A stretch of 64,000 nt of DNA, taken from Actinomycetota bacterium (lineage in GTDB: Bacteria; Actinomycetota; Thermoleophilia; Gaiellales; Gaiellaceae). Positions 53,469-64,000 of the stretch are shown piece by piece. The notes beneath the pieces were generated by a model. That model was not told the DNA's origin. It ran no database searches and saw nothing but the letters and a program-made list of their open reading frames with translations. Numbering within the stretch: position 1 is the stretch's first letter; each line of letters begins with the position of its first letter. The position numbers and the translations under genes are program-made. Where the stretch lies: positions 5,534 to 69,533 of the forward strand of contig JBKPPY010000020.1 in assembly GCA_046733845.1 (NCBI GenBank). The letters run 5' to 3'.

Positions 53469-54956
53469 CTAGCGGGTCGGAATGCTCTGCGCGAACCGGA
53501 AGAAGTTGTCCGGGTCGTAGTTTCGCTTGACGGCCACTAGGCGCTTGAGATGAGAGCCGTAGTACGCGGCGCCCCAGTCCTGGAGATCGGGATCCGCGTA
53601 GTTCGTCACCGCTCCGCGGGAGACAAAGGGCTGCATGGCAGCGTGGGTGTTCTGCACCCAGCCGAGGTGGGCTGCGGCGACTTCAGCCGGCGCCGACACG
53701 CTCCAGAACGCCGTGTACCGGATCGCGAAGAGCGCTGACCGGTGTGCGTACGCGGTTGCGTCCGCGTCAACACGATTGACCGCTCCGCCGTGCGCGAACA
53801 TGAGGATTCCGACGGCGCCGAGTCGAGGGTCGCGATCGGCGGACTCGAGCGCTCGAGTGATGACGTCGATGCCTCCGTCCGGCAGCGGCGCGACCCCGAA
53901 GTTCGACTTCGCGGCGTACGACCTGCGTTCGGGGTTGTCCGCAGCGAAGTAGCTGACCGCACCGATGAACGGACGACGAACCGCGGCCAGCCTCAGCGGC
54001 CTGACTGCGTCGGTCAGCGGGGCCAGCATTGCCAGCGTTTCGTCACGGGTTCCGAAGACCTGCCCGTTGAGGATCACCTGCGGCGTACCGCCGGCCGGCG
54101 GCGGCGGCGTGAACGTCAACGAGCAGCTGAGGCTGTCGGGTGCGGCTGGGGCAAATGCCTGCCAGGCGCGCGTGACCTTGGGCGCGTCGGCCCAGGCCCA
54201 GCTCGCGTTGACGGTCGTGACGAAGTCGACCGGGTGCAATCGAAAGACGAACTTCGTCACCACCCCGAAACTGCCCCCGCCGGCGCCGCGAAGTGCCCAG
54301 AAGAGTTCCGGCTCACTGTGGGGGTTGCATACCCGATGTTTCCCGTCGGCCGTGACGATCTCGATCTCGACGACGTTGTCGCACGCAAGCCCGAGTGCGC
54401 GAGACGAGTATCCGTGGCCGCCGCCGAGGGTCAGCCCCGAAACTCCTACGGCCTCGCAGGTGCCGAAGGGGACCGCGCGCCCCACGTTCCACAGGCGCCC
54501 GTACACCGAGCCGAGCTTGGCGCCCGCCGCCACCGCAGCCGTGCCGTCGGCATTCGTGTGGATGTTTGTAAGCCGGGACACGTCCAGCACGAGGCCGGGC
54601 GAAATCGAGTAGCCGGCGAAGGAGTGGCCGCCCGATCGGGTCGTAACCTGCACGTCGTACCTTTTCGCCCACTGGATCACCCGGCGGACATCCGCGATCG
54701 TCTCGACGTAGGCAATCGCGAGCGGTCGAATCCCATCGAAGCGCGGATTCCAGATCTGACGGGCCCGGGCGTATCCCTTGCCGCCACGAGGGATGAGGTC
54801 GCCGTGGAGAACATGGGCGAGGGCGGCGAGCCTGGGATCGGCGGCCGCACGAGCGGACGCGCCAGGCCACGCCGCCGCAGCTGCGAGGCCGAGCGCTCCT
54901 CCGACACCACGGCGCAGGAGCTCACTCCGGTCGAACAAGCGCTCTTCCAACACCAC
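53469..54956 (-). CDS. Secreted FAD-linked oxidase (FAD_binding_4 plus berberine-bridge-enzyme-like C-terminus) with Tat-type signal
   Basis: Starts GTG 54956, GTG 54953 and TTG 54950 follow GGGAAGGA. Twin-arginine signal LLRRGVGGALGLAAAAAWPGASARA. Contains RSGGHSF and a C-terminal VKRNYDPDNFFRFAQSI. Confidence 0.8.
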   Translation of the reverse strand: MVLEERLFDRSELLRRGVGGALGLAAAAAWPGASARAAADPRLAALAHVLHGDLIPRGGKGYARARQIWNPRFDGIRPLAIAYVETIADVRRVIQWAKRYDVQVTTRSGGHSFAGYSISPGLVLDVSRLTNIHTNADGTAAVAAGAKLGSVYGRLWNVGRAVPFGTCEAVGVSGLTLGGGHGYSSRALGLACDNVVEIEIVTADGKHRVCNPHSEPELFWALRGAGGGSFGVVTKFVFRLHPVDFVTTVNASWAWADAPKVTRAWQAFAPAAPDSLSCSLTFTPPPPAGGTPQVILNGQVFGTRDETLAMLAPLTDAVRPLRLAAVRRPFIGAVSYFAADNPERRSYAAKSNFGVAPLPDGGIDVITRALESADRDPRLGAVGILMFAHGGAVNRVDADATAYAHRSALFAIRYTAFWSVSAPAEVAAAHLGWVQNTHAAMQPFVSRGAVTNYADPDLQDWGAAYYGSHLKRLVAVKRNYDPDNFFRFAQSIPTR

Positions 54957-55006
54957 ATTCCTTCCCGATGTACCGGGGCGGCAACTCGCAGGCCGCCGCC
55001 CCGACA

Positions 55007-55465
55007 CTACTTCAGGCAGATGGCATAGACCGATCCGGATTGAGCGCCTGGCGCGCTGGACGTGGTGTAGATGTTGACCGTCCACCCTGCACCGTCGGCG
55101 GTGGGGAGACTTTGATAACTGGACGACCAGTCTCCGGGGTCCGACCAGCCGCCGGCGATCGCCTTCTGGCCCGCGTCGCAAGTGGCCGTGAAGTTGGCCT
55201 CGCCTCTCGGGTTGAGCGTCCAGGGGGCCGTCTTCACCACGATCAAGCTCGCGGCGCTGCTTGCCGGGCCCGGCTGCTGGGCGGCCTGAGCGATGAGCGC
55301 CGGGGGCGCCTGCCCGTTGAGCTTCTTGGCGTTGTCCGCAACGAGAGCGCGCTTTGCGAGCGGTACGACGGCATTCCCGACGGCGAAGGCCGTTCCCGAC
55401 AGCGCAACGAAGAGCGCAACGAGGGCGACGACCAGCGCCGGGCTTGGGGGCGAAAACCTGCGCAT
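55007..55465 (-). CDS. Small secreted/membrane-anchored hypothetical protein
   Basis: ATG 55465 is preceded by GGGAAGGGAGGGAAGG. Begins MRRFSPPSPALVVALVALFVALSGTAFA. Two Cys in the C-terminal beta-rich part. No family recognised. Confidence 0.5.
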   Translation of the reverse strand: MRRFSPPSPALVVALVALFVALSGTAFAVGNAVVPLAKRALVADNAKKLNGQAPPALIAQAAQQPGPASSAASLIVVKTAPWTLNPRGEANFTATCDAGQKAIAGGWSDPGDWSSSYQSLPTADGAGWTVNIYTTSSAPGAQSGSVYAICLK

Positions 55466-55598: not shown

Positions 55599-58500
55599 AT
55601 GGAATTCCTCATCCTCGGTCCGTCCGTCGAGGTACGAGACGGCGAGCGCACTGTGGCGGTGCGGCGGAAGAGGCAACGCGCCCTCCTCGCCGTCCTGCTC
55701 CTGCGCGCCGGTGAGGTCGTCCCCACGGACATCCTGATCGAGGAGATCTGGGGCGCGAACCCGCCGCGGACCGCCCGCGAGTCGTTGCACAACAACGTCT
55801 CGCAGCTCCGTAAGCTGCTCGGCGAGGGCGTGATCGAGAGGCACGATCCCGGCTACGTCCTGCAGATCGACCCCGGCCAGCTCGACCTCGTCCGCTTCGA
55901 ACGGCTCGTCGCCGACGCTCGCCGGACGGAGTCGGCTGAGACGCGCGCAGCCGGGCTCCGGCAGGCCCTCGCGCTCTGGCGCGGCTCTCCGCTCGCGGAC
56001 CTGGCCTACGAGCCGTTCGCCGACGTCCAGATCGAGCGCCTAGAGGAACTGCGACTTGCAGCGCAGCAGGACCTGGTCGACGCGCAGCTCGACCTCGGCC
56101 GGCATGCAGATGTGGTCGGCGAGCTCGAGGCGCTGATCGCCGTCCATCCGTTCGACGAGCGGCTCCGCTCTCAGCTCATGCTCACGCTGTACCGATCGGG
56201 ACGCCAGGCGGATGCGCTCGCGGTGTACCGGAATGCGCGCCAAGCACTCCTGGACAGCCTGGGGCTCGAGCCCGGCGTGGCGCTGCGCGAGCTCGAGCAG
56301 GCGATCTTGCGCCAGGATCCGTCGCTCGATCTGCCGGCAGTGCTGCCCTCTCTCGAGGAGCGGCGGAAGACGGTGACTGTCCTGGCCTGCGAGGTCGCGC
56401 CGACGGCGTCCGGCCTCGATCCCGAGGAGCTGCGCCGGCTGACCGTGAAAGCGCTCTCCTCCGTCCGCGCAGCAATCGACGGCCACGGCGGCGCGGTCGA
56501 GACGCGGGCGGGCGACGAGCTCCTCGGCATCTTCGGCGTTCCCGCATCGCATGAGGACGACGCGCTGCGTGCCGTTCGGGCAGCCTCGGAGCTCGAGGTC
56601 GAGCTCGGCGACAGCGGGCGAATCGGGATCGACACAGGCGAGGTACTGACTGGCCATGGGTTCGTGTCGGGCGAGGTCGTGGGCCGGGGTAAGGGGCTCG
56701 CCCGGGCCGCCCGCCCTGGAGAGATCCTGCTCGGCGAGGGGACGGTCGGACTGTGCCGCAACGCGGTGCAGGTCGAGCCTGCGAACGGCGCGCACCGGCT
56801 CCTCGGGGTCGAGAAGGCAACGCGGCCGACGGCGCGCGCTCTCGACGCGCCGCTCGTCGGGCGCAGGACCGAGCTGGCAGCACTCCGGGACACGTTCGAG
56901 CACACGCGCAACGGTGGACAGGCGTGTGTCGTCCCCGTTCTGGGCGAGCCCGGAATCGGCAAGACGCGGCTCGCACGCGAGCTCGTCACCGGAGTTCGCG
57001 GCCAGGCAACCGTCCTCGTCGGGCGCTGCGTCTCCTACGGAGCAGGCGCGACCTACCTGCCGCTGCGGGAGATGGTCGCGCAGGCGGGCGGCGACCTGGC
57101 AGAGATCGTCGGCGACGCCGGAACCGTCGGGGAGCAGCTGCTCGCCGTCCGGCGCTTCTTCGAGCGACACGCACGCGAACGCCCGCTCGTGCTCGTGTTC
57201 GACGACGTCCACTGGGCGGAGCCGGCGTTGCTCGACCTCGTCGAGCAGCTGGACGAGAGAACCGAAGGGCCGATCCTGACACTCTGCCTCGCCAGACCTG
57301 AGCTCCGCGATCTTCGCCCTGTCCTGGCCGAGGATGCAATCGAGCTCGGGCCCCTCGGGGAGCAGCAGCTGCGTGCGCTCGTCGACTCGCTGGCCGAGGC
57401 AGCGCCCGACGACGTGCGTGCGCGGGTCGTCGAGAGTGCCGGCGGCAACCCGCTCTTCGCCGAGCAGCTCGTCGCCTACGCCGAAGAAGGAGGCGCAGTC
57501 GACGCCGTTCCCCCCTCCGCGGAGGCGCTCATCGCCGCCCGTCTCGACCTGCTCGAGCCCGAGGAGCGGTCGGTGCTTCAACGTGCCGCGGTGGTCGGAC
57601 GCCTCTTTTCGCGCAGCGCCGTCGAGGAGCTCTCGCCGCCGCACGACCTCGCCGTCGGCGAGTTGCTTCAGCGACTCGGCGAGAAGGGGCTCGTCCACCG
57701 TCGGCGCGGCGGCTTCCGCTTCCACCACGTGCTCGTGCGCGACGTCGCCTACGCGTCGCTGCCGAAGGCCGAGCGCGCGCGGCTGCACGAGCGCCTGGGC
57801 GACTGGCTCGACGAGCAGGGCGAGCCCGACGAGCTCGTCGGCTACCACCTCGAGCAGGCCTACCGCCTGCGGGCAGAGCTGGGCCGCATCAACGGACGAG
57901 CACGGCGGCTCGCCGCCGACGCGGGCCAACGGCTGGGCGCGGCCGGCATCGGGGCGTGGAAGCGCGGTGATACTCCCGCGACCATCAGCCTGCTCGAACG
58001 GGCTGTTCAGCTGCTGCCCGAACGAAGCACTCACCGAGTTGAGCTGCTGTGCGAGCTCGGCATCGCGAGACGTACCGGCGAGGAGCTCGCATCCGCCGAG
58101 AGCACGCTCGCGAATGCCGCCGAAACGGCGCTCGCAGCCGGCGATCGCCGGCTCGAGATGCGAGCGCGACTCGAGCTTGCCGCGGTGCGGCTCTTCAGTA
58201 GTCCCGAAGGACGTGCAGACGATCTGCTCGATCTCGCTGCCAGCGCGCTTCCACTATTCGAGGCAGTTGCCGATCAACGCTGCCTCGGAAGAACATGGCA
58301 GTCGATCGCCGTCGTTCAGGGGCCGATGCGCTGCATGCATAGCGCGGCCGCGGAGGCAGCCGGCCGAGCCGTCGTCCATCAGCAAGCCGCCGGATGGCCG
58401 GTCTCGGCGTCGCTTGGAGTGCTCGCAGCATCTCTCCAAAATGGCCCGACACCAGTTCCGGAGGCGATCCAGCGCTGCAGGAAACTCCTGTTAACCGCGG

Positions 58501-59156
58501 ATCTCGCCGGTCAGGCGAACATCCTTGCTCCCCTGGGCGCCCTCGAGGCGATGCGTGGCCGCTTCGCCGAGGCGCGCAAGCTCGTTCGACGAGCGGCGGA
58601 GACGTATCAGCAGCTCGGGCAAACCTCCACCTCAGAGGCCAACTGCGGCGCCGTCATGGGGCGTGTGGAGTTGCTCGCCGGCGACCTTTCTGCTTCGGAA
58701 CGGGCATTGAGAGCGAGCTGCGAGACCCTCGAGGAGGTCGGCGATCGGTCGTACCTGGCCAGCGCTGCGGCCGAGCTGGCCGACGTTCTGCTCATCCAGG
58801 GTCGAGATGACGACGCTGACCCATGGTGTCGGACGGCCGAAGCTCTAGGCGCGTCGGACGACGTTCTGACCCAGATTCTCTGGCGGACGGCTCGTTCTCG
58901 GTTGCTCGCGAGGAGGGGTGCTCTCAACGAAGCCGAGGACCTCGTCCGGGCAGCGGAGCGGCTCGCGCAGGGTACGGACGGCCTGAACCGACAGGCGAAG
59001 GTGCTTCTCGATCTCGCAGAAGTCCTGCGACTCGGCGGTCAAGCCGCAGCCGCCGCAGAGGCCATGAATGCAGCGATCAATGCGTTCGAGCGCAAGGGGA
59101 ATTTGGTCGGCGTGAGGGAGACCCGCGCCCTCCTCAAAGAGCTCGCGATGACCTGA
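55599..59156 (+). CDS. SARP-family regulator: OmpR-type winged HTH + BTAD + class III cyclase-homology domain + P-loop STAND ATPase + TPR-like repeats
   Basis: wHTH/BTAD (ALLAVLLLRAGEVV, LALWRGSPLADLAYEPFA, LMLTLYRSGRQADAL). Cyclase-like segment VTVLACEV...AGDELLGIFG...RIGIDTGEV. Walker A GEPGIGKT and Walker B LVLVFDDVHWAE. Helical repeats run to the C-terminus. Confidence 0.85.
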   Translation: MEFLILGPSVEVRDGERTVAVRRKRQRALLAVLLLRAGEVVPTDILIEEIWGANPPRTARESLHNNVSQLRKLLGEGVIERHDPGYVLQIDPGQLDLVRFERLVADARRTESAETRAAGLRQALALWRGSPLADLAYEPFADVQIERLEELRLAAQQDLVDAQLDLGRHADVVGELEALIAVHPFDERLRSQLMLTLYRSGRQADALAVYRNARQALLDSLGLEPGVALRELEQAILRQDPSLDLPAVLPSLEERRKTVTVLACEVAPTASGLDPEELRRLTVKALSSVRAAIDGHGGAVETRAGDELLGIFGVPASHEDDALRAVRAASELEVELGDSGRIGIDTGEVLTGHGFVSGEVVGRGKGLARAARPGEILLGEGTVGLCRNAVQVEPANGAHRLLGVEKATRPTARALDAPLVGRRTELAALRDTFEHTRNGGQACVVPVLGEPGIGKTRLARELVTGVRGQATVLVGRCVSYGAGATYLPLREMVAQAGGDLAEIVGDAGTVGEQLLAVRRFFERHARERPLVLVFDDVHWAEPALLDLVEQLDERTEGPILTLCLARPELRDLRPVLAEDAIELGPLGEQQLRALVDSLAEAAPDDVRARVVESAGGNPLFAEQLVAYAEEGGAVDAVPPSAEALIAARLDLLEPEERSVLQRAAVVGRLFSRSAVEELSPPHDLAVGELLQRLGEKGLVHRRRGGFRFHHVLVRDVAYASLPKAERARLHERLGDWLDEQGEPDELVGYHLEQAYRLRAELGRINGRARRLAADAGQRLGAAGIGAWKRGDTPATISLLERAVQLLPERSTHRVELLCELGIARRTGEELASAESTLANAAETALAAGDRRLEMRARLELAAVRLFSSPEGRADDLLDLAASALPLFEAVADQRCLGRTWQSIAVVQGPMRCMHSAAAEAAGRAVVHQQAAGWPVSASLGVLAASLQNGPTPVPEAIQRCRKLLLTADLAGQANILAPLGALEAMRGRFAEARKLVRRAAETYQQLGQTSTSEANCGAVMGRVELLAGDLSASERALRASCETLEEVGDRSYLASAAAELADVLLIQGRDDDADPWCRTAEALGASDDVLTQILWRTARSRLLARRGALNEAEDLVRAAERLAQGTDGLNRQAKVLLDLAEVLRLGGQAAAAAEAMNAAINAFERKGNLVGVRETRALLKELAMT

Positions 59157-59212: not shown

Positions 59213-59260
59213 TCAGTCCTGCCGGCCGCCGCCTCCGCCGTTCTCCGGCATTCCGGTCAT
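59213..59260 (-). CDS. Mini-ORF, 15 aa MTGMPENGGGGGRQD
   Basis: AAAGGAGGTGAGCGCC precedes the ATG. Inverted paralogue of 59443..59481. Confidence 0.3.
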   Translation of the reverse strand: MTGMPENGGGGGRQD

Positions 59261-59322
59261 GGCGCTCACCTCCTTTCGGAGGCCCACTCCACGACCAGGC
59301 GCTCACCGCGCCCCAATCGCCG

Positions 59323-59339
59323 GCTAATGGCTCGCTAAC
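59323..59339 (+). promoter_or_regulatory. 11-bp-phased direct repeat GCTAAT-N5-GCTAAC (candidate SARP box, site 1)
   Basis: Lies between the two divergent mini-ORFs, left of centre. The second repeat forms the loop of GGCTC-GCTAAC-GAGCC. Confidence 0.3.
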
Positions 59340-59442: not shown

Positions 59443-59481
59443 ATGATCGGAATGCCGGGCAACGGCGGCGGCCCGCGTTAA
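59443..59481 (+). CDS. Mini-ORF, 12 aa MIGMPGNGGGPR
   Basis: CAGAGGAGGTGAGCC precedes the ATG. Inverted paralogue of 59213..59260. Confidence 0.3.
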   Translation: MIGMPGNGGGPR

Positions 59482-59527: not shown

Positions 59528-60739
59528 CTAGCGGATCCGAAGACGGCGCACGCTCGGCGTCAGCGAGACGCCGATGCAGGCGGAGGCCTGCACGGTCGCC
59601 GAGGCCAGAAGAGTCGCGGGCACGCCAATAACGACCGCCAGCGGGCCGGCCAGCGCGAAGCCGGCTGGTTGCAGCACGACAGAGCCCAGCCAGTCGTACG
59701 AGCTGACGCGGGAAAGCGCCTGGCGCGGGATGCGCTCCTGAAGCGCGGTGAACCACACTGCATTCGAGAAGCCGGAGGCGCCGAAGCCGATCGCGGCGGC
59801 AACGGCGATCAACGCCGTCGGGAACGGCCGCGCAAGGAGCGCCGGCTCGAGCGCCCAGAGCGAGACGGCGAGCCCTCCGACGAACAGCGGGCGCCTGAGG
59901 CGCAGCCGCAGCGCGACCGCGTCGCCGAGCACCGCTCCGATTCCGCCGGCCGTCCCGATCACACCCCAGGCGGCCGCCCCGCCCAGCGACTCCTTCGCGA
60001 CGAGCGGCCCGAGCACGAAGAGGGGCGTGATCGCCAGGTTCGAGATCGAGAAGCGGAGCACTGTCACCCAGACCCAGGTCCGGCTCCTGACCTCGAGCCA
60101 GCCGGCGCGCAGCTCGGCGAGCACACCCGCCCGCGGATGCTGGTCCGGTGACCACGGAAGTGACAGCAAGGCGAGCGAGAGGCTCGACACGGCGAAGGTC
60201 GCCGCGTCGACCGCGAAGACCCAGCCCGGGCCGACGCTGGCGACGAGCAGTCCCGAGATCGTCGGGCCCGCAACGAATGCGACGCTCCGCGACAGACTCA
60301 TGAGCGCATTCGCCTCCTGCAGACGCTCGGAGGGCACGGTTTCGGGCACGAGCCCCGTCGACGCCGGCGAGAAGAAGGCGTCTCCCGCTCCGAAAAGGGC
60401 AAAGAGGACGACCAGTTGCCACACCTCCGCCTGCCCGCTGATCAGCAACAGAGCGGCGAGCCCCTGCGAGGCGGTGCGAACGAGGTCGGCGGCGAGCATC
60501 ACGCTCTGGCGCGGCAGCCGGTCGGCGACAACTCCGCCGAGGAGGAGGAACACGACCCGCGAGGCGAATGCGGTCGCCAGAACGAGCCCGAGTGCCGATG
60601 CCGAGCCGGTCAGCTCGAGGACCGCGAACGCGAGTGCCACCGGGACGAGGCTCGATCCCAGCGCCGACGTCGCCTGCCCGAGCCACAGGAGCCTGAAGGT
60701 TCCCTCCTCCAGCACCCCGAGCCTCCCGGCGGCGAGCAT
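59528..60739 (-). CDS. MFS transporter (efflux-type)
   Basis: 12-TM MFS pattern (FRLLWLGQATSALGSS, GGVVADRLPRQ). ATG 60739 is preferred; GTG 60757 is the alternative. Confidence 0.85.
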   Translation of the reverse strand: MLAAGRLGVLEEGTFRLLWLGQATSALGSSLVPVALAFAVLELTGSASALGLVLATAFASRVVFLLLGGVVADRLPRQSVMLAADLVRTASQGLAALLLISGQAEVWQLVVLFALFGAGDAFFSPASTGLVPETVPSERLQEANALMSLSRSVAFVAGPTISGLLVASVGPGWVFAVDAATFAVSSLSLALLSLPWSPDQHPRAGVLAELRAGWLEVRSRTWVWVTVLRFSISNLAITPLFVLGPLVAKESLGGAAAWGVIGTAGGIGAVLGDAVALRLRLRRPLFVGGLAVSLWALEPALLARPFPTALIAVAAAIGFGASGFSNAVWFTALQERIPRQALSRVSSYDWLGSVVLQPAGFALAGPLAVVIGVPATLLASATVQASACIGVSLTPSVRRLRIR

Positions 60740-60760
60740 GACGCGAGACTTTCGCACGTC

Positions 60761-60777
60761 GCTAACTTCCGGCTAAT
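60761..60777 (+). promoter_or_regulatory. 11-bp-phased direct repeat GCTAAC-N5-GCTAAT (candidate SARP box, site 2)
   Basis: Lies in the 30-48 bp gap between the hydrolase-like gene stop (60788) and the MFS start. Confidence 0.3.
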
Positions 60778-60787
60778 ACCGGGAGCC

Positions 60788-61636
60788 TCAGCAGATCGCC
60801 CCAGGCGGAATCGCGCCGCCCGGCCGGAACGTGACCCGCCGCCCGGGGTTGCGACCGGCGAGGATTGCGGCCCCGTAGTCCCAGAGGTCGTGCCCGTGTC
60901 TGCTGGTCGTGACCCAGGCCGCGACCGGGCGTCCCACCGTTCGGGCGAGCTTCGAGAGGGTCCCGGCGTTCGCGTCGCGATTGCAGGTCGCGCCACGGAA
61001 GAACCGCTCCTCGTCGGGCGAGAGGCTCCAGATGTCGGTGAACCGCGTCCCGCCCCGGACGAGACGGGCAAGGCCCGCAACGCCGGCGCTTCGCCGCCGC
61101 AGGGCGGCTTCCGATCCGCCCGTCTCCTGGTCGATCTCCTGCGCCGTCTCGTGCGTGTCGGGCAGCAGCTTCCGCCGTGCGACCAGGTCGAGGTAGGAGT
61201 CGATGACGATCAGCCGGTCTGGGCGGATCTCGGGATGATGCGAGGCCAGCGTCGCGACGCCGAAGCCCGAGTACGAGACGCCGATCAGAACCAGCTCCCC
61301 GCCCACTCTCCGGTGAACCGCGCGGATCTTCTCGGCGAGCTGCGCAAGGTAGTGCGGCTCGCCCCAGTCGAGGTGCCGATCCGCCCGGAGGCCGGGTCCG
61401 AGGTAGCCGTCCTTCGAGTAGCGCCCGCATAGCAGCGTGTACCGGCTGCGTCGCGCGAGTCGACGGAGCTGCTCGCAGTACGCCCAGCCGCCGCTCGTGA
61501 CCATGAGACCGCGCGGATCGGGAACGGCGTACAGGGTCGTCACGACGGACGCGGGGCCGCCTCCCGCGGAGGCGACCCCTGCTCCGATCGAGACGACGAG
61601 CGCGCTCACCGCCGCCGCCTGCCGGAGGCTCCTCAC
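60788..61636 (-). CDS. Secreted hypothetical protein, possibly alpha/beta-hydrolase fold
   Basis: From GTG 61636 (GTGA overlap) the sequence reads VRSLRQAAAVSALVVSIGAGVASAGG (signal). Contains a nucleophile-elbow-like LIGVSYSGFG. The listed 635-aa ORF is a composite. Confidence 0.5.
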   Translation of the reverse strand: MRSLRQAAAVSALVVSIGAGVASAGGGPASVVTTLYAVPDPRGLMVTSGGWAYCEQLRRLARRSRYTLLCGRYSKDGYLGPGLRADRHLDWGEPHYLAQLAEKIRAVHRRVGGELVLIGVSYSGFGVATLASHHPEIRPDRLIVIDSYLDLVARRKLLPDTHETAQEIDQETGGSEAALRRRSAGVAGLARLVRGGTRFTDIWSLSPDEERFFRGATCNRDANAGTLSKLARTVGRPVAAWVTTSRHGHDLWDYGAAILAGRNPGRRVTFRPGGAIPPGAIC

Positions 61637-62670
61637 AGCGCCTGCCCGTTGCGGACGATGAAGACCTGACCGGACGAGCTGTGGTTGCCGCGGATGTCCG
61701 TCACAGTCACCCGAAGGATGTAGATGCCGTTCGGGATGCGGGCGCTGTCGAAGGCGACCCGGCTGAGCTTGTAGAGGTACACACCCGGCTCCCGCCACGC
61801 GCGCTGGCCGTTGAAGGTGGCCATGTTCTGCCGGGTACCGCGGGCGTAGCACTGCCAGAAGTCGTCGTGCGGCAGCGTCGTGCGAACGTCGAACGCGGTC
61901 CGCTCGGGAAGGACGACTTTGCCGCTCTTCGCCGACTCGACCCGCCACGTGACCAGTGCCGGCGCGACCGGCAGATCGGCCCAGTCGTCGGGAACACGCA
62001 AAGAAGGCATGTCGTAGGCCTGGGCGACCAGGACGACGCGGCCGTGCACGTACTCCGGGAGGATCTCGGGGCCCGTGTCGGACTCGCGGAACGAAATCGA
62101 GCTCACGCGCGGAACGGTGGTGTCCTGGTACGGGCCCAGGTGCCCCGGCGCGAGCGGGTTCACGATCCGGCCGTGGTCGATCTCGGTGAAGTGGACGTGC
62201 CCGTACCCCTTCATCACGTGACCGAGCACCGTCTTGAAGGCCTCGACCTTCTGGCCGGGCTCGACCGTCGGCACGATGTGCCAGTACTCGGCGACGAAGC
62301 CGCTGCCCGAGTCGACTGCGACCACCCGGGCATTGATCAGCGTGGCGGTTCCCGAGCGGACGGGATAGACCGCAGTGCCGTCGGGAGTCGAGATGTCGAC
62401 GCCGAAGTGCAGCGCGAAGATGCCCGAGCTGGTCATCAGGCCGCGCGGGGTCGGCGGGCCCGCGAACGTCGTGCGCGGGTCGCCGAAGTTGCCGCGAACG
62501 GGATGGGGCCGGTCGAACGGCTTGACGGGCCAGTTGTAGCCGCTGCCGGCCGCCGAAGCCCGTCCGGCCGGGATCGCGAAGGAGATCGCCGTCACTGCGA
62601 ACGAGAGCGTGAGGAGGGACAGGACGATGGGGCGCAGGGCGCCGCCGCGGATATGTGTGTGAGTGAACAT
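61633..62670 (-). CDS. Secreted M23-family metallopeptidase with C-terminal extension
   Basis: Signal peptide, HFGVDISTPDGTAVY (HxxxD) and GHVHFTE (HxH). Confidence 0.7.
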   Translation of the reverse strand: MFTHTHIRGGALRPIVLSLLTLSFAVTAISFAIPAGRASAAGSGYNWPVKPFDRPHPVRGNFGDPRTTFAGPPTPRGLMTSSGIFALHFGVDISTPDGTAVYPVRSGTATLINARVVAVDSGSGFVAEYWHIVPTVEPGQKVEAFKTVLGHVMKGYGHVHFTEIDHGRIVNPLAPGHLGPYQDTTVPRVSSISFRESDTGPEILPEYVHGRVVLVAQAYDMPSLRVPDDWADLPVAPALVTWRVESAKSGKVVLPERTAFDVRTTLPHDDFWQCYARGTRQNMATFNGQRAWREPGVYLYKLSRVAFDSARIPNGIYILRVTVTDIRGNHSSSGQVFIVRNGQAL

Positions 62671-62713
62671 GCGGCCACGCTCGGGCCGCGCTCAAACCGC
62701 TCCCTCAGCGCCC

Positions 62714-62730
62714 GCTAACGGCGCTCTAAT
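62714..62730 (+). promoter_or_regulatory. 11-bp-phased direct repeat GCTAAC-N5-TCTAAT (candidate SARP box, site 3)
   Basis: Lies in the divergent intergenic region 62671..62771. The first repeat forms the loop of AGCGCC-CGCTAAC-GGCGCT. Confidence 0.3.
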
Positions 62731-62771
62731 CGGGTCTGGTCAACGGATGTGCAGAGTGCTACAAGGGCTCT

Positions 62772-64000
62772 GTGCTCGAGTTCAAGCTCCTCGGGCCGAT
62801 CGAGGTCGGCGAGGACGGCACCTCCATCGTGCTCGGCGGCCCGAGGCAGCGCGCCCTGCTTGCCCTCCTGCTGATCCATGCGCGCGAGGTGCTCTCGACG
62901 GACCGGATCATCGAAGAGCTCTGGGGCGAGCAGCCGCCGACTAATGCCAAGGCCGGGCTCCACAACCTCGTCGCCCAGCTACGCCGGCTGCTCCCGAGCG
63001 ACGTCCTCTTGAGAAGGCCGCCCGGGTACGTGCTCCGGATCGAGCCGGATCAGCTCGATGTGAACCGCTTCGAGCAGCTGGTCGCCGACTCGAGAGGGCA
63101 GGACGCGAAGCAGCGGTCGCGGCTGCTGCGCGAGGCGCTGGCCCTGTGGCGAGGCTCCCCGCTCGCCGACTTCGCGTACGAGAGCTTCGCCCTGGGGGAG
63201 ATCCGCCGGCTCGAGGAGCTCAGGCTCGACGCTCTCGAGGACCGGATCGACGCCGACCTCGAGCTCGGCGGGGGCGGAGAGCTCGTCGGCGAGCTCGAGG
63301 GGCTGGTCACGGCGCATCCGCTCCGCGAGCGCCTGCGCGGGCAACTGATGCTCGCGTTGTACCGATCGGGACGGCAGGCGGAGGCAATCCAGGCCTACCA
63401 CGACGCTCGCCGCACACTGGCGGACGAACTCGGCATCGATCCGAGCCCGGCGCTGCAGCAGCGCTTTCGCTCGATGCTCAAGCAGGAGGACGCGCTAGAG
63501 CGTCCGTCCGCGCAGCACCCGGTCGAGGACCACCTCGGAGACGTCGTCGACGCGTTCCTCGCCGGCCGCCTCGTGTTCATCGTCGGCGAGGGCGTCAACC
63601 ATCCGGGCGAGCCGGCGGAGAACGGCCTGCCCGGGCCGGCCCAGGTAGCGGCGCACCTGGCTCGCTGCTTCGAATGCCCGCCCGACCACGCGCTCGACCT
63701 GGCCCACGTCGCCGAGTACGTCGCGCTGACCAAGGGTGTGGGTCCTCTCTACGACGAGCTGCACACCCTCTTCGACCTGGAGAGCGCCCCCGGTCCCGTC
63801 CATCGGACGCTGGCCGAGCTGGCCCGGCTGCTCCGAGCACGCGGCGGCTCGAACCAGCTGATCGTCACCACCAACTTCGACGACGTCCTGGAGCAGGCGT
63901 TCACGGACGCCGGCGAGGCGTTCGACGTCGTCTCCTACCTCGCCCTCGGGCCGAATCGCGGCAAGTTCCTCCACGTCGGCTCCGACGGTGCGGCCGCGCT
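62772..64000 (+). CDS. SARP (winged HTH + BTAD) fused to a SIR2-like (SIR2_2-type) domain; 3' end outside window
   Basis: Not in the ORF track because there is no stop codon before the window end. My translation from GTG 62772 reads VLEFKLLGPIEVGEDG...ALLALLLIHAREVL...LALWRGSPLADFAYESFA...LMLALYRSGRQAEAI. From about 63534 it continues GRLVFIVGEGVN..GLPGPAQVAAHLA..PVHRTLAELA..LIVTTNFDDVLEQAF. Confidence 0.75.
   Translation, partial: MLEFKLLGPIEVGEDGTSIVLGGPRQRALLALLLIHAREVLSTDRIIEELWGEQPPTNAKAGLHNLVAQLRRLLPSDVLLRRPPGYVLRIEPDQLDVNRFEQLVADSRGQDAKQRSRLLREALALWRGSPLADFAYESFALGEIRRLEELRLDALEDRIDADLELGGGGELVGELEGLVTAHPLRERLRGQLMLALYRSGRQAEAIQAYHDARRTLADELGIDPSPALQQRFRSMLKQEDALERPSAQHPVEDHLGDVVDAFLAGRLVFIVGEGVNHPGEPAENGLPGPAQVAAHLARCFECPPDHALDLAHVAEYVALTKGVGPLYDELHTLFDLESAPGPVHRTLAELARLLRARGGSNQLIVTTNFDDVLEQAFTDAGEAFDVVSYLALGPNRGKFLHVGSDGAAA

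Follow-up and report, generated by a model that had tools for sequence, protein, structure and literature searches.

We characterized a gene at the right-hand end of a 64,000-nucleotide stretch of DNA (the window) from a Gaiellaceae bacterium (Actinomycetota; contig JBKPPY010000020.1 of assembly GCA_046733845.1). The gene, here gene 1, encodes a DNA-binding module of the Streptomyces antibiotic regulatory protein (SARP) type fused to a SIR2-like domain. In its relatives, it is paired with a second gene, gene 2, which encodes an nSTAND1 NTPase of the STAND (signal transduction ATPases with numerous domains) class, a transmembrane helix, and WD40 repeats. The evidence that these two genes form a coherent and previously undescribed module is strong; its mechanism, in uncultured hosts, is proposed here from sequence. 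Our favored reading, to which we assign a rough probability of 0.5, is that this conserved two-gene module may be a split transmembrane sensor resembling nucleotide-binding leucine-rich repeat (NLR) receptors, with SARP-driven transcription as its output.

The reading frame of gene 1 is open on the plus strand from a GTG codon at 62772 to base 64000 (62772..64000), as an earlier note on this DNA had claimed. These 409 codons are the first three quarters of a gene cut by the window edge; by homology the full-length protein has ~552 aa, which places ~143 codons beyond the window. The note had also proposed an OmpR-type winged helix-turn-helix and a BTAD domain, and both were recovered with Pfam, at aa 23-76 (62838..62999, plus strand; Trans_reg_C, PF00486, 34.9 bits against a cut-off of 26.2 bits) and aa 95-233 (63054..63470, plus strand; BTAD, PF03704, 156 bits, E = 9e-46), respectively. 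The suggested paralogy with the N-terminus of the large regulator encoded from 55599 was borne out at 52% identity over 260 aa (E = 1e-69). In the recognition helix, N65, Q69, and R71 were invariant across the 34 orthologs aligned.

The rest of the fragment, aa ~255-409 (63534..64000, plus strand), is the N-terminal half of a SIR2_2-type domain, as determined by Pfam, profile, and fold comparisons. The motifs FIVGEGVN, GLPGP, and LIVTTNFDDVLEQAF, from which such a domain had been predicted, are all found in the window protein. For the fragment alone, the Pfam check named in the earlier note fell short: SIR2_2 (PF13289) matched aa 363-385 to model positions 2-24 of 141 with E = 4.6e-4 and 20.8 bits, under the cut-off of 24.5 bits, because the Pfam model starts at the TTNFD strand, just 24 residues short of the window edge. 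The orthologs supplied the part of that check that stood. Searching 5.8 billion proteins with the 409-residue window fragment returned more than 118 full-length orthologs with 58-82% identity across all 409 residues (best E = 1e-214), nearly all of them 545-570 aa long and carrying precomputed PF00486, PF03704, and PF13289 annotations. When three of them (64-82% identity) were rescanned, SIR2_2 scored 58-71 bits across the whole model, and Pfam found no further domain after it. The AlphaFold model of one ortholog, P0002 (pLDDT 81.5), resembled the AfsR SARP (8k60; template modeling [TM] score 0.91, 42% identity) and also EmbR in its N-terminal half, while its C-terminal half matched the SIR2 domains of KomC, ThsA, and DSR2 (TM score ~0.7, Foldseek E = 3e-11 to 1e-7). 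KomC was likewise returned (E = 4e-9) when PDB sequences were searched with a profile. NCBIfam yielded only partial AfsR/BagI SARP matches, far below cut-offs.

Gene 2 was examined in relatives of gene 1. When the SIR2 part was used to scan GTDB, with each species represented by one genome, 249 matches were obtained, and the locus counts below rest on 80 loci retrieved out of these 249, all from Gaiellaceae, Thermoleophilia, or otherwise unclassified Actinomycetota metagenome-assembled genomes (MAGs). Partner conservation was measured by tblastn because a crude GC3 gene caller sometimes chose antisense open reading frames (ORFs). An nSTAND1 homolog was directly observed immediately downstream, on the same strand, in 79 of the 80 loci; in the sole exception, only 21 nt of sequence are left past gene 1. 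In 76 of these 79, the TGA stop codon of gene 1 and the start codon of gene 2 overlap (ATGA in 39, GTGA in 30, TTGA in 7), an arrangement that is classic for translational coupling. Locus L001, which is syntenic with the window through its large SARP, MFS transporter, and SARP-SIR2 genes (79-82% nucleotide identity), provides a worked case. Here gene 1 overlaps by 4 bp a 1357-codon ORF encoding nSTAND1 (PF20703, E = 8e-39, aa 9-402) and then many WD40 repeats (E = 3e-96, Pfam). The Walker A motif of the partner is intact (GDTGVGKSS). A single strongly hydrophobic helix was seen between the NTPase and the WD40 region in 54 of 56 partners, with RRHRR, ~21 hydrophobic residues, and xQR in order (L001:12200-12280). 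Since RRHRR stands on the N-terminal side of the helix, the positive-inside rule predicts outward-facing, extracytoplasmic WD40 propellers. Median identity to L001 was 65% for the SARP part, 56% for SIR2, 55% for nSTAND, and 39% for WD40.

For the window's own locus, gene 2 would follow gene 1 as it does in 79 loci, the syntenic L001 among them. Exact matching of a 40-mer taken from the end of the window gave nothing in metagenome contigs, and the best match to the window protein returned from the 5.8 billion proteins had 82% identity, none being identical; as no contig extension was found, the downstream gene is deduced from relatives only. The earlier note had suggested that gene 1 might be the N-terminal part of a STAND-like protein. 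The link to STAND was sound, in that the coupled next gene encodes the nSTAND1-transmembrane-WD40 protein, but the orthologs end at ~552 aa, and this length together with the stop/start overlap rules out the N-terminus of a giant STAND protein. A single-chain effector-NTPase-sensor protein of the STAND/NLR-like kind was likewise rejected, the nSTAND1 gene being separate and overlapping the stop codon in 76 of 79 loci. In loci L014 (9227-13594) and L051 (9233-14974), both MFD MAGs, gene 1 reads through into the nSTAND1 gene, which could be a true fusion or a Nanopore indel artifact. Apparent single-ORF fusions of the SIR2-like domain and nSTAND1 also occur in P0134 and P0225, and all four cases are either Rosetta-stone fusions supporting physical interaction or frameshift artifacts of long-read MAGs.

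We then considered the catalytic residues of the SIR2-like domain, which the earlier note had named as a check on its SIR2 assignment. The window fragment has the GxG loop (IVGEGVN) and a TTNFD strand with an Asn at the catalytic position, N368 (nt 63873-63875); the His position lies beyond base 64000. In the profile alignment, this Asn falls on the TTNYD Asn of KomC, and the His of the orthologs' KIHGG motif on KomC H146. The equivalent residues are ThsA N112 and DSR2 N133 for the Asn and DSR2 H171 for the His. The nearest relatives, L001, P0001, and P0002, keep both the Asn and the KIHGG His. Residue statistics from 198 distinct family members gave a different picture for the family. The Asn was kept in 98 members (49%) and was otherwise S (51), G (24), A (10), H (7), T (4), or another residue or gap (4). 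The His was kept in 175 (88%) and the second Gly of the NAD-loop GxG in 71%, being lost in 29%; the full canonical set of GxG, Asn, and His remained in 76 (38%). Within the domain, 74% of sites vary less than the Asn site, while the motifs GPLYDELH, GKFxH, SFVVxEDD, LRRSHFLFLGY, and YRSWA are near-invariant, which argues that canonical NAD+ hydrolysis is not what selection maintains family-wide. An NAD-consuming effector is doubtful as the conserved function across the family, judging from these residues, although the window's own clade may still hydrolyze or bind some NAD+, because the GxG and Asn of the window and the His of its nearest relatives are intact.

These patterns bear on two alternatives. 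The pair could be an NLR-like abortive-infection or conflict system in which nSTAND1-WD40 senses an invader and the SIR2 NADase depletes NAD+, with the SARP part only autoregulating the operon or tethering the effector to DNA. Consistent with this, the SIR2 domain is nearest to the defense NADases KomC, ThsA, and DSR2, GxG, Asn, and His are kept in the window's clade, the WD40 region is the fastest-evolving part of the pair, sister forms exist with CHAT or TIR and as standalone SIR2 proteins with an intact dyad beside nSTAND1, and both nSTAND1 and SIR2 are listed as conflict-system components (PMC8195603). However, the Asn is lost in 51% of SARP-SIR2 orthologs and GxG in 29% while the pair and its other motifs stay, and the most conserved region is the SARP module. 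Many loci also lie in a conserved, vertically inherited core neighborhood and not in a variable island, PADLOC matched no system, and a sensor predicted to face outward is hard to square with intracellular phage proteins. We consider this explanation rather unlikely.

Alternatively, gene 1 could encode a transcription factor sensing NAD+/NADH or ADP-ribose, with the SIR2-like domain as the ligand sensor for the SARP module and the STAND neighbor accessory or independent. The retained Rossmann fold and the 88% conserved His fit this idea, and domains evolving into binding modules typically lose their catalytic residues but keep the fold; yet the GxG that is lost in 29% of members is the pyrophosphate-binding element. 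Moreover, the translational coupling to nSTAND1 is strict (76 of 79 loci), and coupling to nSTAND1 is common to SIR2-like proteins that have no DNA-binding domain, which together make an independent role of the STAND protein unlikely. A ligand-sensing transcription factor of this kind is accordingly one we regard as improbable.

The breadth of this pairing was apparent among sister architectures. The SIR2 half of the window protein, used as query against 1.84 billion cluster representatives, retrieved 631 with the SIR2-like subfamily at E < 1e-10, and the place of the domain along the chain varied widely among them. The architectures comprised standalone SIR2 (~320 aa), CHAT-SIR2, TIR-SIR2, Pkinase-SIR2, XRE-HTH-SIR2, and cyclase-SARP-SIR2, and further fusions took the forms nSTAND1-HEAT-SIR2 and CHAT-SIR2-nSTAND1. 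The next gene encoded nSTAND1 in all five non-SARP contigs that extend past the SIR2 gene. The partner's transmembrane helix was present for TIR-SIR2 (L081) and XRE-HTH-SIR2 (L086) and absent for one standalone SIR2 (L084). As read from these architectures, the constant core is the SIR2-like domain plus nSTAND1, and the N-terminal module is interchangeable. Asn and His were both kept in 34 of 40 standalone representatives versus 4 of 14 long fusions, which suggests that the catalytic residues decay once another output is attached. The cyclase-SARP-SIR2 orthologs (~740-770 aa; L001:8651-10912, P0131, L034, L045, and L076) have an extra N-terminal adenylate/guanylate-cyclase domain.

Heptamers repeated with an 11-bp periodicity are the hallmark of SARP sites. 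Upstream of gene 1, three heptamers at 11-nt spacing (CCCTCAG cgcc CGCTAAC ggcg CTCTAAT; 62702..62730, plus strand) make up an array that resembles SARP boxes and stops 42 nt short of the start codon. In the corresponding upstream regions of 73 orthologous loci, which are related by descent so that the counts are not independent, a core spacing of 11 nt was observed 85 times, 22 nt 30 times, and 33 nt 10 times, against ~0.7 expected at each distance, with CGCTAAC as the consensus. Arrays of 2-4 boxes were present in 51 of the 73, the proximal box typically ending 41-44 nt before the start codon, and this arrangement is kept in intergenic DNA at divergences with ~55% protein identity. The cyclase-SARP-SIR2 loci have coding sequence and no box array ahead of the SARP part. 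A scan of the window located two similar arrays on the plus strand: four heptamers at 11-nt spacing (CGCTCAC, CCCCAAT, GGCTAAT, CGCTAAC; 59300..59339) and two (CGCTAAC ttcc GGCTAAT; 60760..60777) adjoining the start of the MFS transporter gene. Six arrays of at least two boxes occur in the 64-kb window versus 5.3 expected by chance, and only the three at 59.3-62.7 kb have CGCTAAC-type boxes.

Between the proximal array and gene 1, a putative promoter reads TGGTCA, 17 nt, and TACAAG preceded by TG (62737..62765, plus strand). With 6 nt between the end of TACAAG and GTG 62772, this layout suggests that transcription is leaderless. Of the 73 loci, 39 have a G[TA]G[CTA]TA[CG]A motif no more than 40 nt from the start codon, and in 28 of these it is at -16. 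A sigma-70 consensus scan of 59.1-62.9 kb gave no canonical promoter, and the proposed -10-like element is without the terminal T. We also noted two divergent mini-ORFs, 59213-59260 (minus strand) and 59443-59481 (plus strand), that flank the four-heptamer array between the large SARP gene and the MFS gene. Both have strong Shine-Dalgarno sequences, and their Gly-rich products, MTGMPENGGGGGRQD and MIGMPGNGGGPR, are similar. They may be peptide genes under SARP control; the peptides had no counterpart in the 80 related loci.

The case for a transcriptional output is supported by the SARP part being the most conserved of the pair, by its invariant recognition helix, and by boxes held at a fixed distance from the gene. 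For the split sensor that we favor, we infer the topology and the direction of signaling as follows. The extracytoplasmic WD40 propellers would bind a ligand, and the nSTAND1 domain would oligomerize in an NTP-dependent manner at the inner membrane face. The oligomer would then engage the SIR2-like domain, whose role we infer to be that of the constant docking or oligomerizing partner of this nSTAND1 clade, and this contact would cluster or activate the SARP modules of the cytoplasmic gene 1 protein. These modules, in turn, would take the tandem 11-bp-spaced CGCTAAC heptamers as their DNA target and activate their own operon and nearby genes. The SIR2-like domain may descend from the NADase effector of an NLR-like conflict system and have been retained chiefly for coupling, a role that would leave its catalytic residues optional across the family.

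Several points weigh against this scheme. Gene 2 and the last 143 codons of gene 1 are outside the window, and the pairing is taken from relatives, of which the closest has 82% protein identity. The outward orientation of the WD40 region is predicted from the positive-inside rule only. The boxes lie upstream of the -35-like hexamer and do not overlap it as in classical SARP promoters, the arrays are inverted in some loci, and their binding protein could instead be the paralogous large SARP from 55599. GxG, Asn, and, in the nearest relatives, His are intact in the window's clade, which is compatible with an active NADase, and the 88% conservation of the His suggests some remaining ligand-related constraint. 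Finally, the other known associations of this nSTAND1 clade and of SIR2 effectors are with conflict systems (PMC8195603).

Compared with known systems, the module would work like AfsR-type SARP-STAND regulators and also like effector-nSTAND1 conflict systems. With the AfsR-type large SARPs (SARP-NB-ARC-TPR; 8k60, 8hvr) and EmbR it shares the winged helix-turn-helix and BTAD fold described above for the P0002 model (42% identity and a TM score of 0.91 to the AfsR SARP), and with the AfsR type also a common logic of SARP output, STAND NTPase, and repeat sensor, and its candidate target sites are likewise tandem heptamer boxes of 11-bp periodicity near the putative promoter. Unlike AfsR, however, its NTPase is nSTAND1 and not NB-ARC and is on a separate, translationally coupled polypeptide, its sensor is WD40 behind a transmembrane helix in place of a cytoplasmic TPR, a SIR2-like domain stands between the SARP and the STAND protein, and its boxes lie upstream of the -35-like element instead of replacing the -35. 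The NB-ARC/AAA_16 and TPR regions that follow BTAD in cis in AfsR-type proteins are absent here and present, as AAA_16 and TPR, in the product of 55599-59156. With KomC (Kongming; 8zsf, 9xvc), ThsA (Thoeris), and DSR2, the module shares the SIR2_2 fold, with aligned TTN[FY]D and K[IL]HG positions. It differs from them in having no SLOG/Macro domain, no ThsB, KomA, or KomB neighbors, and no DSR2-type C-terminal sensor, as well as in the missing catalytic Asn in half of the family, the fusion to a transcription activator, and the core-genome context. Thoeris in particular was rejected: no SLOG/Macro domain follows SIR2, no TIR ThsB was found, the neighbors are nSTAND1-WD40 and M23- or DMFA2_C-like genes, and the PADLOC ThsA matches are weak and local. 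Avs5 is a single-chain SIR2-STAND defense protein. Overall, the defining features of AfsR-type large SARPs, Thoeris, Kongming, DSR2, and single-chain Avs-type proteins were not found together in the module, and membership in each was rejected.

Conflict systems that join an effector to nSTAND1 were described by Kaur, Iyer, Burroughs, and Aravind (eLife 2020, 2021; PMC7159879, PMC8195603). The nSTAND1 clade, the repeat sensor, and SIR2, TIR, and caspase-like (CHAT) modules are shared with them, and the CHAT-SIR2, TIR-SIR2, or standalone SIR2 genes followed by nSTAND1-WD40 fit their scheme. In those systems, small Death-like or EAD domains act as adaptors that couple the effectors (PMC7159879, PMC8195603). 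The module studied here instead has the SIR2-like domain itself as its constant partner, a transcription activator as its N-terminal part, and a sensor predicted to lie outside the cytoplasm. SARP and BTAD are mentioned in neither paper, and SIR2 appears once only, in a list of effector domains (PMC7159879, PMC8195603). Full-text literature searches found no description of the SARP/BTAD-SIR2 architecture or of its pairing with nSTAND1-transmembrane-WD40. PADLOC gave only weak local SIR2 matches for gene 1 (PDC-S65, ThsA, Aga-SIR2) and had no model for the partner, and a known defense system was rejected on these results. The view in the earlier note that the architecture could not be placed in a described system was therefore upheld. 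Its caveat that this might be a common, already annotated SARP subfamily was half right: the architecture is common in soil metagenomes, but it carries only the generic labels "SARP family activator" and "BTAD domain-containing regulator."

We next turn to the neighboring genes, for which the comparison across loci was made with the crude GC3 caller that at times picked antisense ORFs. Flanks are conserved in many loci, with uvrB (UvrB confirmed with Pfam) downstream of the gene pair and, upstream, S1-repeat/rpsA-like and lytic-transglycosylase-like genes (read by eye), an MFS gene, and a secreted M23-like or DMFA2_C-like gene on the opposite strand. The gene pair looks vertically inherited in a core region and not part of a defense island, and a conserved neighborhood from S1-repeat to uvrB leaves a defense role unsupported by context. 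In the window, a divergent gene for a secreted M23-peptidase-like protein (61633..62670, minus strand; Pfam Peptidase_M23) is a candidate co-regulated target, sharing with gene 1 a 101-nt intergenic region that holds the box array. A gene of this M23 cluster or for a DMFA2_C-like secreted protein stands upstream on the opposite strand in many related loci, and such divergent M23-like genes hint at a link to the cell envelope. An M23 gene was also found near the Pkinase-SIR2 relative P0129. In the window, a 635-codon ORF (60788-62695, minus strand) overlaps the 345-codon M23 gene in another frame, and the stretch 60788-61632 could be a separate gene or a frameshift. Rfam identified no RNA family within 58.5-64 kb of the window.

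Further upstream lie the large AfsR-like regulator (55599-59156, plus strand; winged helix-turn-helix, BTAD, AAA_16, MalT-like TPR, and a weak cyclase-like stretch at aa 270-404), the MFS transporter gene (59528-60757, minus strand; Pfam MFS_1), and a BBE/FAD-binding oxidoreductase gene (53469-55181, minus strand) that flanks the large SARP. The BBE/FAD oxidoreductase and MFS genes on either side of the large SARP have a secondary-metabolism flavor, unlike most related loci. With these three genes in the window, gene 1 could be taken for an ordinary pathway-specific SARP of a biosynthetic gene cluster, its SIR2-like part being an accessory deacylase of the sirtuin type that acts on a protein substrate. 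The domain is, however, of the SIR2_2 type and not that of deacylase sirtuins, its catalytic residues are variable, and the flanks conserved elsewhere are housekeeping genes and not a biosynthetic cluster, which leaves this explanation highly improbable.

More tentatively, the module may represent a new class of bacterial transmembrane NLR-like receptors, with WD40 outside, an nSTAND1 switch, a (pseudo)sirtuin as universal coupler, and interchangeable SARP, XRE, kinase, cyclase, CHAT, or TIR outputs. The Gaiellales SARP version would then be an immune-type module domesticated into core, autoregulated outside-in transcription, an analog of NLRs turned transcription regulators. SARP regulators are known almost only from Streptomyces antibiotic clusters; if the split-sensor reading is true, a membrane-spanning STAND receptor would also use them as its output, in a soil lineage that is widespread and uncultured. 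Defense-type SIR2 domains are regarded as NAD+-depleting killers, and here such a domain would be a docking or oligomerization module in which catalysis is dispensable. Collectively, CHAT, TIR, kinase, HTH, and SARP modules on one SIR2-like/nSTAND1 core would form a series for the rewiring of an effector-STAND conflict module into ordinary signaling.

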